Source of the DNA: Saccostrea echinata
Taxonomy: Eukaryota
Length of the DNA stretch: 64,000 nucleotides
Assembly (NCBI RefSeq): GCF_033153115.1
Contig: NW_026889794.1
Location: 5,394,001-5,458,000, forward strand
Reading direction: 5' to 3'
Below the pieces are notes generated by a model that was not told where the DNA came from, did no database searches, and worked only from the letters and a program-made list of their open reading frames with translations. Position numbers and translations under genes: made by a program. Each line of letters starts with the position of its first letter. Position 1 is the first letter of the stretch. Below, piece after piece: positions 18,512 through 47,594 of this stretch.

Positions 18512-21500
18512 TCATTCCGGAAGTATTATTTCTCCTTTGATATCTTCATAAATTCCCGCCACATTGATAGCCCGCACGTACAGATGAACAGACAGACTTG
18601 ACCAGCTGGTGATTGTTGGCGGTAGGCCAAATTTGATGCTTGTCTTTGTGGTCTCCTGCCACTGAAGAACGTTACTTCCGCTCTCAACAGTTCCAGCGCA
18701 AACTTCGTAATAAAGAGGATGTTCAGAATTAAACACGTTGTTCCAAGTGACAGAAAATTCTTTGTTTCCTGCGTGCCAGGACACTAAAAGTTGATTTCCT
18801 TTAAAAGAATATGTAGTTAATTATAAAAGGCAAGTTATTCATTATCAAAAATACTAAAGCACTATATAGCATATAAATTTATCAACACTATAATGATATG
18901 TTCTTTGCATACCAGACTTTCGTGGTTTGTCGTAGAGTACTGTAATGTTGTGTGGTACTCTGCTGCCTGCAAGAAGAAGTTTATTGATGGCTTGTATTGA
19001 AATATTTGTAAGTCCCTGGTCCATAGCTAAGTTCATTATCACTGCACTCTGAACGTCTTGGCCAATCGGAAATGACATCCTTTCAATCAATTTTAAATTT
19101 TGATCAGAAAATATGATCTACAAAAAAAAAAGAAAGAAAAGGAAATGAAAAAAAAAGATAAACACTGGGTAGAAGATACTTGTCATTAATTTCAAATGAA
19201 TAAAAGCTGACCTTATATTGATCAATTCCAACGGAATCTGTAAATCCAGACCATTTTATTCTAACACTGTCTTTGACACTTTGATAATGAACGTTAGCTT
19301 GGTACTCCGTGACAGACATAGGCAAAACCACAACCTCAGAATGAGCTACTGATGGGGTTAGGGTGGAAATTGTCACTCCATCAGAGGATTTAGAAGTTAT
19401 TAAGCCTGCACGATTTTGACACCTTATTGTAGAATACACAGTTCGATTTGCCAAAAGATTATAGTCAAAATCCTTAAATAGAACAATTTCTGAAACTGGT
19501 ACTTTCTCAAATGTCTGCAACTCGACTCCCTGAGGTTGGTAACCTGTTATAAAAGTTATTAGAAGTTTTATATCTCTTACATGCAAGATTGATTATTGGT
19601 AGAGCAATGTTAAATACTAAACCTAGGAATAGCACTTTTAAAAATGTTTGCATCTCTTATAGATTGTTATTTAAAACACACCTATACCCCATTCGCAGAA
19701 TTCTATTCCTGACTCATTGTCCAATGCCACAAAGTTGACGGCTACTTCATTGTCTATCCATGCGTCTTTATCCTCGCCTTATTAGATTAAAACGTTTGTC
19801 AATGAATATTAACAATTAATATTAAACTGAACGAAATTGAAATTAACCATATTTAGTTATTACAAAATATCCAAAATCTAGAATTTATTTGCAAATTTGA
19901 CGGTCCTGTATCCATATTCCATTTCCAAAAAAATCAAATTTCAAATTGTCTTACTTGTTAACCGACCATCGTATACATGGACGATCTCTGGAGGGGTAAG
20001 GTCGACAAGAACTGGTGCGGAGTAGGAAAGCCCATCAAGCCCAGCCATATTGGAGGCCACCGCTGTTATATGTATGACTGTGTTATGGATCAAAGTCACA
20101 TTCGTGTTGATTCCGAAGTTGTTCAGTCCAGTACTTTCGAAGCTTTGAAGTTGTATCCCACCTTTCGTATATCCTAACAATGAAACAGGCATGCATTTTT
20201 TATGGTGCGTACTTTAAAATATGTGCATCAATTATTTCCATTTTCCTCCACTTTCTTTACATCATTTGACTAGTGATGTGAATACCATACAAGTTGGCTA
20301 GAGAGTTAGCATACATGCATATAATTTACCGAAGAGGAAAGGTCATAAACGTTACCATTTGTGGATTTATTATTTTTACCTATTGCCCATTTGTACTCTG
20401 CGATAGGACTTGAATCTTCAATAAAGCTCCATTCCGCGTGTATAGAACCCCACTGGTGTATATAAACGATGTGAGCAGACACATGCGATTCATTACCGTC
20501 TTTTTCATCCCTTTCTACGCGCTGAAATGTCAGGTGTTCTACAAAGAGTCCTGTCTTGGTATCTGTACTTCCGATTTCTAAATAAGCTGAAATATCTGAA
20601 GCTGTAAAGTAAAACGTATGTCTATGCCATGACAAAGTCTCGCGAGAAATAGATTCACCATGTCCATCTTGCCTATATGGTTTTGTATATAACATAAAGA
20701 CATGTTTCTTTTTACCGATGTGAACAAAACCTTCTTTATTGGAAACCATAGCTGTTTTCAGTGATAGATGGCTTGTGAAGAAAACGACATGATACAATTC
20801 CCCAACTTTCAAATTTTGGACTTTTTGTCTTAAACTTCCCCTCAAAAATAGAAAAGCTTTGCCATCTCTGGCTAAATTTTTCTGTGACTTCACTACAGAA
20901 GCACAACTTCCATGAGTTGCATGCCAATGATCAGGTAGAAAGTCCAGATTTAAAGAACACAGGTTACTGACATTTATATTTTCAACTGACAAAAACTTCT
21001 TTGAGGACTCAAACGAAGGGTTCTGCAGTAGATTTTCTTCTGTATGATAAAGGTATCGAGGTTTCGGTGGGGTGGTGTCGATTTTTACACCATCAGAAAC
21101 AACAATTTCAGATTCATATCCAACGGTATCCACTGCGTATACTTTGCTATAGTAGGTCGCACCTGAAATGATTTATTCAACATTCATATCAAAACTCCAA
21201 AAGAAACCGTACAACACATCTACATTACATTGAAAATAATAAATTTATATGATTCAATTGGAATTAGAGAGCCTATGGATATTTAATAATGTTCAACACT
21301 ACATGCAACTACATGTAATATCAGATACTTATGTAAATACTTATCAACCAACCTTGTAGGAGTTCATTTTTCAATTTTCTAGATACGGATGTATGAATAC
21401 CAACATTTTCCCATTGGCGAACGTTGCATTCCGTATTTGCTGATGACGTATGGAAACTAGAAGTGTTACCAACGCACCAGTAATAAAGCAATATCCCGGA

Positions 21501-22146
21501 CCCCGTATCTGAAAATCCGTGCCATCGAGCACCGATCACATTTGATGTATTCTGATATTCAAGGTCATGCAAACCTGTAAGTCAAGAATTTGAAAACCAT
21601 ATATATTTTAACCCATTGACTTTTCATGCTTAAAGACTTATCTAAAAGAAGAGACATAGGTTACTTGATTAATTCTGAAAATCAGTATGCTTCATATGAC
21701 AGTTAAATCTTTCACTAAATGACAGATTACCCGGTAGTACATTTATAAAGTTTAAAGACTTTTAAAAAAGGGAAAAAGAGCAAAAATACTTCATGAAAGT
21801 GGAAAGATATTCATCTTCATGTAGAGAATACCAACCAATGCCATCGTATACAATGCCAGCTCGTGGTCTAACATCATCAGTTCGAAACCCATCGGAGGAT
21901 TCTGTGTGGTGGATTCCAGAAAACCCATATGCAATGACGTTACTAAAATACTGAACTCCCGGAGAGAGCAAAATTCTAAGAATGTGGTATGTTGTAACTG
22001 TATTTTGTAATTCCTCATTACTGTCCCAGATGTCATGTCCTAAATGATTGCAAGATATTTATTATTCTGTGTTTATAAAAGCACTTCAAATTCAAAAATA
22101 TTTTAAAACGATCATTTTGGATGCACTATCAAATATGGAGATTTCG

Positions 22147-47100: not shown

Positions 47101-47594
47101 GGTACAGTCCTAAAAAACAAAGCAGAAAACTACATTGTATGAGAATGATCAAACATTAAAAGCATAATAATGTTTAGGAAATAGATTAAAAATATCAATA
47201 AAATGTATAAAAAAAAATTTAATTACCTGTATTTAATACAGGTTGACCAACCCCAAATTCCACAGTTGGCTCGATACGAAGTTTGTCTGTACACGGTTTC
47301 TGTGATAACATGAAATCTACAAAATCAAAGAATGTCTTGATATATATAAACAGTGTATAAAGTAAATGTCTAATATTTTCTGAGCAAAGCATGAATAGCG
47401 AGACCAAATTTGTACATAACAAATCTTTCAGTTTAAGTTAAAAGTTACATTCTATCAAATGTGTATAAATATTACCCGTTTTCCCTTAACTGACTTTCGT
47501 ATTCACATTCGACAAAACTGTAAAATACTGCCAAAAGTAAGATCCATAAATTTCTTAGCGGCATTACGCATCTATTTTGTGTACTCCAGGTCAT
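18512..47594 (-). CDS. Giant multi-exon secreted protein: signal peptide, EMI-like, EGF-like, multiple FN3/Ig-like repeats and a CBM-like domain (~50 exons, roughly 3,000+ aa by estimate)
   Basis: Phase-compatible GT-AG junctions checked by hand for the 5' exons 47476-47594, 47227-47316, 47039-47109, 46787-46951, 45347-45490, ~45059-45171 and ~44680-44940. Also checked: 24502/22617, 20380-21162 and the last exons ending ...GEIILPE* at 18512. Recurrent motif D-x-[TS]-P-P..G.V.DG..D.D.Q...W.GF.D.ESG...Y...GT. Not every internal junction was verified. Confidence 0.85.
22769..24479 (-). mobile_element. 5'-truncated Penelope-like retroelement (Naiad-like RT) in an intron of the giant gene
   Basis: RT motifs LVPADKAGNN, LYWIPKLHK, RYIAGSSKC, TYDFSTL, QQSIGIPMGTNCAPLLADLFL, FRYIDD and LTTKLYDKRDDF. 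An in-frame TAA lies just before ORF 22991-23668. The RT ends at VFHTNC* and is followed by a structured 3' UTR. Confidence 0.9.
26038..27106. mobile_element. Non-autonomous Tc1/mariner-pogo-type element
   Basis: Perfect 27-bp TIR CCGTATAACGGGTATTTTCTGCGGTTG, flanked by TA on both sides. Confidence 0.88.
28870..29163 (+). mobile_element. tRNA-derived SINE with a V-domain-like core
   Basis: A-box TGGCGCTATAGTTAG, B-box GGTTCAAATC, core GGATGAGACCGTATAAACCGAGG and an (AAAC)n tail. 12-bp TSD ACAAGCACTCAC. Confidence 0.88.
31105..31919. mobile_element. Non-autonomous hAT-like element
   Basis: 17-bp TIR CAGGGATAGACATTAAC / GTTAATGTCGATCCCTG, subterminal CTTG(C/T)CC repeats and a flanking direct repeat AATAT. 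Confidence 0.8.
34568..34643. repeat. Hairpin/palindrome
   Basis: TTCTATATGTAAAATTATCAG-T-CTGATAATTTTACATATAGAA has perfect 21-bp arms, extended by TATATGCC / GGCATATA. Confidence 0.8.
45806..46091 (+). mobile_element. tRNA-derived SINE, same family as 28870
   Basis: B-box GGTTCGAATCC, the same body and an AAAC tail. 10-bp TSD TTTTCTCACA. Confidence 0.88.
46140..46445 (-). mobile_element. Old Penelope-like 3' fragment
   Basis: Degenerate match to the RT C-terminus and 3' UTR (GGGGATGCTTACT...CTGATCCCACCTCTG). Confidence 0.6.

Follow-up and report, generated by a model that had tools for sequence, protein, structure and literature searches.

The 64,000-nucleotide (nt) window analyzed here, to which all positions refer, comes from the oyster Saccostrea echinata (NCBI RefSeq assembly GCF_033153115.1, contig NW_026889794.1, positions 5,394,001 to 5,458,000, forward strand); it is AT-rich (34% GC), and the assembly spans 923 Mb. 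On its minus strand, from 18512 to 47594, lies a gene of 54 coding exons (10,296 nt including the stop) for a giant secreted protein of 3,431 amino acids (aa), ~380 kDa when mature, with 71 Cys and 35 N-glycosylation sequons. Splice sites were assigned by hand along the minus strand, from 47594 to 18512. The initial manual model had 53 exons and a single open frame of 3,424 aa, and a 21-nt micro-exon was then added. Every intron is GT-AG, and the frame is open across all 3,431 codons. The other reading frame of exon 2 was rejected because the conserved frame is the one that carries CGxWGWSxC. The gene and its product are arranged as follows, all on the minus strand.

47505..47594: signal peptide, aa 1-30, the sole strongly hydrophobic stretch
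47040..47477: EMI/FUN-like hairpin, aa 40-93, exons 2-3, cationic and Trp-tipped
45059..47039: three Cys-rich modules, aa 94-234, exons 4-6, with phase-1 introns at their bounds
21041..45058: D1-D20, ~20 FN3-like beta-sandwich domains with DxTPP-type linkers
20513..21040: CBM-fold (beta-jelly-roll) domain, aa 2833-3008, within the largest exon, with an NPSFE motif at aa 2839
18512..20500: D21-D24, four C-terminal FN3-like domains and the stop, with no membrane anchor
Exons 1-6: 47594-47476, 47316-47227, 47109-47039, 46951-46787, 45490-45347, 45171-45058
Exons 7-12: 44940-44680, 44598-44463, 44209-44002, 43622-43464, 43361-43013, 42851-42554
Exons 13-18: 41812-41686, 41498-41268, 40907-40698, 40383-40106, 38802-38646, 38496-38284
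Exons 19-24: 38196-38043, 37917-37667, 37414-37394, 37174-36977, 36576-36441, 36326-36289
Exons 25-30: 36177-36039, 35899-35664, 34513-34346, 34237-34045, 33592-33353, 33170-32956
Exons 31-36: 32806-32701, 32615-32499, 32417-32282, 29762-29582, 29450-29180, 28267-28081
Exons 37-42: 27996-27785, 27676-27447, 27322-27169, 25910-25732, 25614-25471, 25352-25181
Exons 43-48: 24985-24856, 24623-24502, 22617-22478, 22363-22216, 22039-21836, 21574-21353
Exons 49-54: 21162-20380, 20173-19955, 19777-19682, 19543-19212, 19117-18913, 18798-18512
37414-37394: the 21-nt micro-exon, which the duplicate shares with the three C12 paralogues examined
32128-32053: cryptic exon of 76 nt (77 nt in the contig of one relative), bounded by AG/GT and containing an in-frame stop

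The gene is real and its structure is confirmed. RNA-like contigs X1, X2, and X3, whose RNA status is the tool's guess, come from close relatives ~95-97% alike in exons and directly list 15 junctions of the model; one of them, the 5,637-nt X1 record 1, stays at one fixed offset from the model over 13 anchors (29449-18797) spanning the last 21 exons. The 5' exons are based on homology to paralogues and orthologues plus one RNA junction (41498/41686), and upstream of 36576 the contigs, which inform on presence and not on absence, give little or no cover. Raw RNA reads (X21) covered mostly repeats. Four paralogues are colinear with the protein; three of them stand in tandem on C12, and the fourth is a duplicate at a distance of 355 kb. 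In M. gigas, the 3,429-aa product of a paralogue on 11-kb Logan contigs fits a single long mRNA. X1 record 1 has 6 of 20 diagnostic letters in common with the duplicate and thus matches neither copy exactly. A first-pass annotation made from the letters of the window had proposed a single giant protein that is secreted, starts with an EMI-like/EGF head, and continues with DxTPP-linked FN3-like repeats and a CBM-fold domain, and the manual model and the predicted folds support it; frame-breaking junctions, which it had named as grounds for doubt, are confined to the 77-nt exon in one relative's contig, while the 15 junctions fit the model.

The existing database record of the gene, RefSeq LOC133201664 (P0190 here; uncharacterised, 2,991 aa), is the same gene from aa 441 onward at 99% identity. 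It is without the first 440 aa, hence without the signal peptide, the EMI/FUN-like hairpin, and the head, and for that reason the protein has been overlooked in secretome lists. Three splice choices also differ between the two models; RNA joints back the manual model at two of them, and the paralogues back the micro-exon at the third.

The N-terminus is that of a secreted protein. Kyte-Doolittle hydropathy exceeds 1.35 at residues 9-30 only (a second Met at aa 11 would leave a 20-aa signal), and no transmembrane (TM) helix follows the signal peptide anywhere in the protein at that threshold, in agreement with the C-terminus described in the first pass. A strongly hydrophobic body segment is likewise absent in 125 of 127 long family proteins. 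All the pieces singled out earlier, namely the signal peptide, CGIWGWSTC, and the two EGF-like motifs, fall within the open frame. In an AlphaFold2 (AF2) model of the Ostrea edulis orthologue, the region corresponding to aa 40-93 is a long beta-hairpin followed by a short one. A profile built from eight heads matched 19 PDB sequences at E up to 5, with the best match to the FUN-EGF N-terminus of fibrillin-1 (2m74; E 2.3e-8, much of the score being supplied by generic EGF cysteines), and others to TGFBI 42-100 (E 0.005) and periostin 27-82 (E 0.026). The heads share a Cys pattern with solved EMI domains, and across 28 family heads the first Cys and the CC pair co-vary (both in 19, neither in 8, discordant in 1); the head of this gene is of the "neither" type, and the first Cys pair of the family pattern is missing from its hairpin. 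Exon 2 of the window alone gave no Pfam match, and the locus was not among the results of a genome-wide EMI search; the EMI-like domain is split by an intron. A complex prediction for two copies of the orthologue's head scored 0.00 with the alignment unused, which is evidence neither way. The Cys-rich modules that follow are an EGF-like module with an insert, a module labelled TNFR-like by eye, and a conserved EGF-like anchor. Introns at codons 94, 149, 197, 235, and 322 are phase 1 throughout, and modules bounded by phase-1 introns favour exon shuffling.

The body is a long array of FN3-like domains. An iterated hidden Markov model (HMM) finds 21 repeats of ~96 aa, or ~24 FN3-like domains when three unscored gaps (D1, D3, and one more) are counted, with inserts at aa 942-1030 and, Cys-rich, at aa 2431-2477. 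The strict linker D-x-[TS]-P-P occurs in 10 copies, where 2,000 shuffles gave 0.056 on average and never more than 2; the earlier count of "at least 11" is reached only if relaxed variants such as DTTKP or DDVRP are admitted. In a close orthologue, D2-D4 (AF2, predicted local distance difference test [pLDDT] 83) match PTPRD FN4-6 (Z 11.2, root-mean-square deviation [rmsd] 8.7, 285 aligned), Tie2 (Z 10.8), fibronectin (Z 10.6), and the Ca-binding adhesin SiiE (Z 10.4, rmsd 6.8, 262 aligned), and D20 and D21 of the window's own protein have Foldseek matches to FN3. By sequence the signal is fainter: Pfam fn3 is over cut-off in many relatives and not in P0190, Pfam scans of 30 single open reading frames gave nothing over cut-off for the gene, a PDB sequence search with P0190 returned one match (E 0.94), and the best PDB match of the family profile, to titin, is marginal (E 2e-4). 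A single RGD motif (aa 687-689, in D4, exon 42851-42554) occurs in some molluscan relatives and is not near-invariant.

For the CBM-fold domain, a 397-aa FN3-CBM-FN3 piece of the window's own protein was modelled at a mean pLDDT of 90 and a predicted TM-score (pTM) of 0.77. The domain resembles TmCBM61 (Z 14.3, rmsd 2.2, 130 aligned), CBM4-2 (Z 13.7), and CBM22 and CBM16 (Z 13.1-13.2); CBM-type matches have rmsd of 2.0-2.7 and identities of 11-23%, with top Z values tied across families. The window exon has no Pfam match for this domain, and no CAZy family was assigned to it; DUF642 is over cut-off only in relatives P0247 and P0286, and the nearest Atlas CBM_4_9 cluster stood at 0.89. These structural matches cover the FN3 and CBM parts, with the head, D1, and both inserts outside them. 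Among 56 core members, 216 positions are near-invariant, including 51 Gly, 36 Asp, 25 Cys, 22 Trp, and 2 Glu, and many of the Asp lie at domain junctions. SiiE is a calcium-binding analogue for such Asp-rich junctions, and by this analogy they may hold calcium here as well.

The gene belongs to a widespread family. It has the D3 and CBM-fold modules and ~20 or more repeats in the same order as other members. Searches of the assembly with either of two exons hit the same 11 loci, three in tandem, although two of them, on C19 and C23, score identically and may be one locus assembled twice. At E up to 0.001, one protein search gave 1,224 representatives, of which 150 were listed, and a second search gave 122 proteins (120 listed). 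Named colinear members come from at least the bivalves, gastropods, the annelid Owenia, the nemertean Lineus, echinoderms, hemichordates, amphioxus, the sponge Sycon ciliatum, and the choanoflagellate Diaphanoeca grandis, with colinearity over ~3,000 aa. Identity is 61% to Ostrea edulis LOC125675332, 59% to Crassostrea gigas LOC105327902, and 31-35% to Branchiostoma floridae LOC118405866; BLASTP aligns Sycon ciliatum LOC135808850 over model residues 145-3423 (26%) and Diaphanoeca grandis EP00040_P037916 over 365-1342 and 1388-3413 (23-25%). Domain number, order, and domain-specific inserts are kept from choanoflagellate and sponge to oyster. The D3 and CBM-fold modules occur together in 113 of 177 fetched proteins of >=2,600 aa, redundant cluster members counted, as scored with HMMs whose source alignment includes sponge and choanoflagellate rows. 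In a tree of 63 sequences (2,857 columns, FastTree, midpoint root), the family broadly tracks animal groups, with expansions within lineages and several weak deep nodes; the gene falls inside the oyster part of the tree (support 1.0), where its sister group consists of eight oyster proteins. Horizontal transfer from bacteria was rejected for the family, not for the repeat taken alone, as prokaryotic matches share the repeat unit only and the family tree is arranged broadly by animal group. Between the gene and its duplicate, dN/dS (the ratio of nonsynonymous to synonymous divergence) is 0.21 overall. Database labels of the members read "FN3 domain-containing" or "EGF-like domain-containing," none with a family name or function. 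The first-pass annotation thus stands in assigning no named gene, with no characterised orthologue found, and needs amending in that the gene is no orphan.

Three side observations concern the family at large. Exon 11 finds 18 further, more distant loci at 28-39% identity on C2, C9, C14, C16, C24, C30, C34, C46, C54, and C62, which are probably a divergent subfamily without the CBM-fold domain, known also from Lingula, clams, snails, and oyster. P0006, P0014, P0290, and similar proteins form a second giant family of 5,500-6,800 aa with ~30 copies of the same repeat; by eye, P0006 resembles P0014, and the soft-coral protein P0290 has a vitellogenin-N domain. Finally, P0074, P0075, P0081, and P0124 (choanoflagellate, sponge, and unnamed members) have a Cys at or near the C-terminus that oyster members are without and that could link chains.

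While the body is fixed, the tip is swapped across the family. In most bilaterian members an EMI-like hairpin stands ahead of a common neck. Other tips are listed below.

Antedon: C-type lectin (Lectin_C, E 3e-13)
Sycon: DERM and Sushi (Pfam)
Amphioxus: Sushi (over cut-off)
Lineus: PAN (over cut-off)
Family members: Gla or TSP1 (under cut-off)
Oyster, divergent subfamily: SUEL (E 3e-6, under cut-off)
Amphiura: three SRCR
Lottia: F5/8-like and trefoil

The EMI-like heads (28 matched of 35 tried) have a mean net charge of +4.8, positive in 25 of 28, and a Trp in the tip loop in 23 of 28, counts that are not independent because the head sequences are related; the mean net charge of body windows is -2.7 (n=1,947). 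Between the gene and its duplicate, the EMI-like tip is the fastest-changing part (dN 0.11 vs 0.017 overall; dN/dS 0.5), with 16 nonsynonymous and 7 synonymous changes against 118 and 161 elsewhere (Fisher p 0.015; one pair, post hoc).

Several known systems share parts of this architecture. Periostin, TGFBI, and fibrillin-1 are secreted matrix proteins with an N-terminal Cys-rich module to which the head profile is similar. The bodies of periostin and TGFBI consist of FAS1 domains and that of fibrillin-1 of cbEGF/TB arrays; the cbEGF and TB arrays of fibrillin and LTBP are not found here, where the body is Cys-poor and FN3-like and P0190 has no such Pfam match. Draper, CED-1, MEGF10, PEAR1, and Nimrod share an N-terminal EMI-like domain followed by EGF-like modules, and, of the named Atlas clusters, the closest have EGF_PEAR1L and EMI (score 0.76-0.77), which is no more than a lead. 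However, the TM helix and signalling tail of Draper, CED-1, MEGF10, and Nimrod are absent from this protein, which ends in an FN3-like domain; in place of their long EGF/NIM array it has two EGF-like modules and one other Cys-rich module, and Draper-type receptors are without its 3,200-aa FN3/CBM body. Of the Draper-type and matrix proteins among which the first pass placed such heads, the matrix proteins are closer by sequence than anything with a Draper-type receptor role. Fibronectin, tenascin, and other tandem-FN3 proteins have long FN3-fold arrays in common with it, with marginal sequence similarity, and neither P0190 nor the window exons have a Pfam match to FN1, FN2, or a fibrinogen-like domain, the C-terminal domain being FN3-like. 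Giant prokaryotic surface proteins (SiiE-like; Ca. Schekmanbacteria, Ca. Marinimicrobia) have the same 96-aa DxTPP-linked repeat by HMM, and vitellogenin-N/FN3 animal giants have that repeat alone in common with the family. The giants checked in these two groups carry 18-31 copies, save one (14, in a 1,679-aa fragment); they are not colinear with the family and are without D1, D3, the Cys insert, and the CBM-fold domain, so that the microbial likeness noted in the first pass extends to the repeat unit and not to the architecture. CBM61, CBM4, CBM16, CBM22, and DUF642 share the beta-jelly-roll and the NxSFE motif, with no catalytic domain attached in this case. A thioester protein of the alpha-2-macroglobulin/C3 type was rejected, the CGEQ motif being absent and TM-scores ~0.1. 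The protein does not belong to the Draper-type receptors, the fibrillins, the fibronectins, or the thioester proteins.

Given a signal peptide without an anchor, a polyanion-type tip, a long FN3 array, and a distant glycan-module fold, the best reading, to which we give an even chance, is that the protein is a secreted two-ended tether in a surface matrix or mucus. Such a protein would be secreted, and its cationic, Trp-tipped EMI/FUN-like head would grip anionic surfaces such as sulfated glycans, acidic mucus, or microbial or dying-cell membranes, while the CBM-fold domain would hold glycan near the opposite end, 2,800 residues from the tip. Between them, the ~24 FN3-like domains would act as a fixed-length spacer, probably calcium-stiffened at Asp-rich junctions. 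FN3-type domains are 3.5-4 nm long, and on the assumption of this length per domain the extended protein would measure 85-100 nm. Paralogues and lineages would retarget the tether through altered or swapped heads. The glycan binding, adhesion, and rod shape proposed in the first-pass annotation are thus what we infer as well. There is precedent for the head: fibrillin-1's N-terminal part binds heparin through Arg residues (PMC3794157), and adhesion by NimA requires its EMI domain (PMC13076899). As for location, the C. virginica paralogue LOC111103999, 60% identical to this protein, is reported at a log2 fold change of +1.87 (3.7-fold, adjusted p 0.026) in mucosal over circulating agranulocytes (PMC13070813 Table S3), where tektin-3-like is positive together with ciliary genes and a Draper-like gene is negative (PMC13070813, section 3.3.2).

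Several observations weigh against a tether. At the tip, the Pfam EMI (PF07546) cut-off of 25 bits is not reached, one of seven heads scanned alone matching at 14.5 bits (E 0.062). The Amphiura SRCR and Lottia F5/8-like/trefoil tips may be gene-model fusions, and P0013 (SRCR) and P0239 are missing the usual neck or a clear signal. At the other end, the CBM-fold domain ranks low in conservation among the domains (identity to deuterostomes 0.25) and is missing from the whole divergent subfamily (0 of 6), where it is thus dispensable; as seen in models, moreover, likeness to a beta-jelly-roll alone demonstrates no function. The strict domain number and order exceed the needs of a plain spacer. 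X1 record 1 has an additional 77-nt frame-breaking exon between 32282 and 29762. The expression datum concerns a single paralogue with a baseMean of 36, one of 3,139 genes reported higher in the mucosal fraction (PMC13070813), and is weak because so many genes go in the same direction.

An alternative, which we consider unlikely, is a soluble haemolymph pattern-recognition or bridging protein (opsonin) that joins microbes or apoptotic cells to phagocytes in the manner of fly Nimrod B4. The lineage-specific expansion to 11 loci, three in tandem, is consistent with this, as are the rapid change of the EMI-like tip between gene and duplicate and the alternative heads that include C-type lectin, SRCR, SUEL, and Gla-like modules; yet the tip dN/dS of 0.5 is not >1, and tip dS is also raised. 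The family is, moreover, present in a choanoflagellate, and choanoflagellates have no circulating phagocytes. A precedent for a secreted bridging factor exists in NimB4, which is phosphatidylserine-dependent (PMC8419693), but expression of the eastern-oyster paralogue is lower in the circulating agranulocytes than in the mucosal ones, the reverse of the Draper-like gene (PMC13070813).

Somewhat less probable again is a structural role in the matrix, with molecules joined head to tail into fibrils in the way that fibrillin polymerises via its N-terminal FUN-EGF. Of the PDB sequences, the fibrillin-1 N-terminus matches the head profile best, and this region binds the C-terminus of fibrillin (PMC3794157); multimerisation is reportedly aided by EMI domains (PMC10381214), and a fixed length under purifying selection (dN/dS 0.21) would suit a fibril. 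Against this, unrelated modules repeatedly replace the head on the same body, which would sit uneasily with a fixed head-to-tail contact; much of the fibrillin score comes from generic EGF cysteines, and the last two domains are among the least conserved. It is still more doubtful that the body folds back into a compact, defined particle (a cage or trap) with a function of its own and a head that merely targets it. Fixed domain number, order, and inserts, where unrelated proteins with the same repeat carry 13-31 copies, point in this direction, as do the near-invariance of 25 of the 71 Cys and the pTM of 0.77 for the FN3-CBM-FN3 piece; however, both models resemble tandem FN3 arrays, and the thioester motif is missing, with alpha-2-macroglobulin-type matches at TM-scores of ~0.1. 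That the copy is mostly non-productive, in a real family at a decaying locus, is very improbable. For it speak the 77-nt frame-breaking exon in one close relative's contig, the 99% identity of the cryptic exon in the duplicate (in a surrounding block of ~95% identity), and the loss of a splice donor from the duplicate; against it, the frame runs uninterrupted through 3,431 codons at a dN/dS of 0.21, and the direct joint 32282/29762 is ungapped against all ten relatives shown, none of which has an insert there.

The cryptic exon lies outside the conserved protein, as judged from these alignments, and is possibly a poison exon. The duplicate (G000:C45:5765600-5795700) is recent (dS 0.08) and does not extend to the adjacent genes; the exon corresponding to the one that ends at window position 27169 has lost its donor there to a short deletion, and as read-through runs into a stop, this copy is probably newly broken.

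All parts of the protein are known folds, and the genes are already in databases as uncharacterised models; as a family, they are large in number, old, and apparently unnamed. Open full text, searched by domain terms and by gene and protein identifiers, gave no description of the family, subscription papers and most supplements being outside the search. Family identifiers are absent from the supplements of PMC11432763, PMC10448888, and PMC6040629 (12 of 16 files), papers that may use other identifiers, and in a review on matrix proteins of echinoderms (PMC10381214) the passages on EMI, fibronectin, and FN3 contain no description of it. We tentatively propose, as a possibility rather than the likelier case, an undescribed pre-animal family of giant secreted proteins: a fixed chassis of 3,100 aa in the choanoflagellate-animal ancestor, with exchangeable tips (EMI/FUN, C-type lectin, dermatopontin, Sushi, PAN, TSP1, Gla, SRCR), that captures bacteria and particles at the surface of collars and of ciliated mucus, underwent expansion in suspension feeders, and disappeared from vertebrates and ecdysozoans, a loss that would explain why the family was never named. 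Among the matches listed there is no named vertebrate, tunicate, arthropod, nematode, or cnidarian colinear member, most entries being unnamed, so that absence is not implied. The 24-domain order common to choanoflagellate, sponge, oysters, and amphioxus would be an item missing from the inventory of pre-animal extracellular proteins, and the oyster copies are candidates for surface defence or particle handling.

Other genes and mobile elements accompany the gene in the window. A linker-histone gene without introns (Pfam Linker_histone, E 1.5e-23) lies at 533-1489 on the minus strand; its product has long tails of Arg-Ser and Lys-Ala, and we take it to resemble the bivalve sperm protein PL-I. 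At 6261-12268 on the plus strand is a glycoside hydrolase family 63 (MOGS-like) gene with an in-frame TAA (10886-10888) between two matching open reading frames; it is interrupted for 3.5 kb after 6935, and the copy is likely either broken or affected by an error in the sequence. The introns of the giant gene contain, among other elements, the following.

22770..24480, minus strand: 5'-truncated reverse-transcriptase fragment of a long interspersed nuclear element (LINE), ~20 nt past the donor of the exon ending at 24502

This fragment is spliced out in X1 record 1, and a second truncated LINE reverse-transcriptase copy, 85-90% like it, lies at 15832-17290 on the plus strand. The intronic elements 26035-27109 and 31104-31920 have terminal inverted repeats of 39 nt and 18 nt, respectively, are both missing from the duplicate, and are likely non-autonomous DNA transposons. 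Copies of a 280-nt repeat resembling a short interspersed nuclear element, very abundant in RNA-like runs, stand at 28870-29170 and 45809-46090, and a 168-bp tandem satellite (7.6 copies, 82% matches) occupies 60044-61328.

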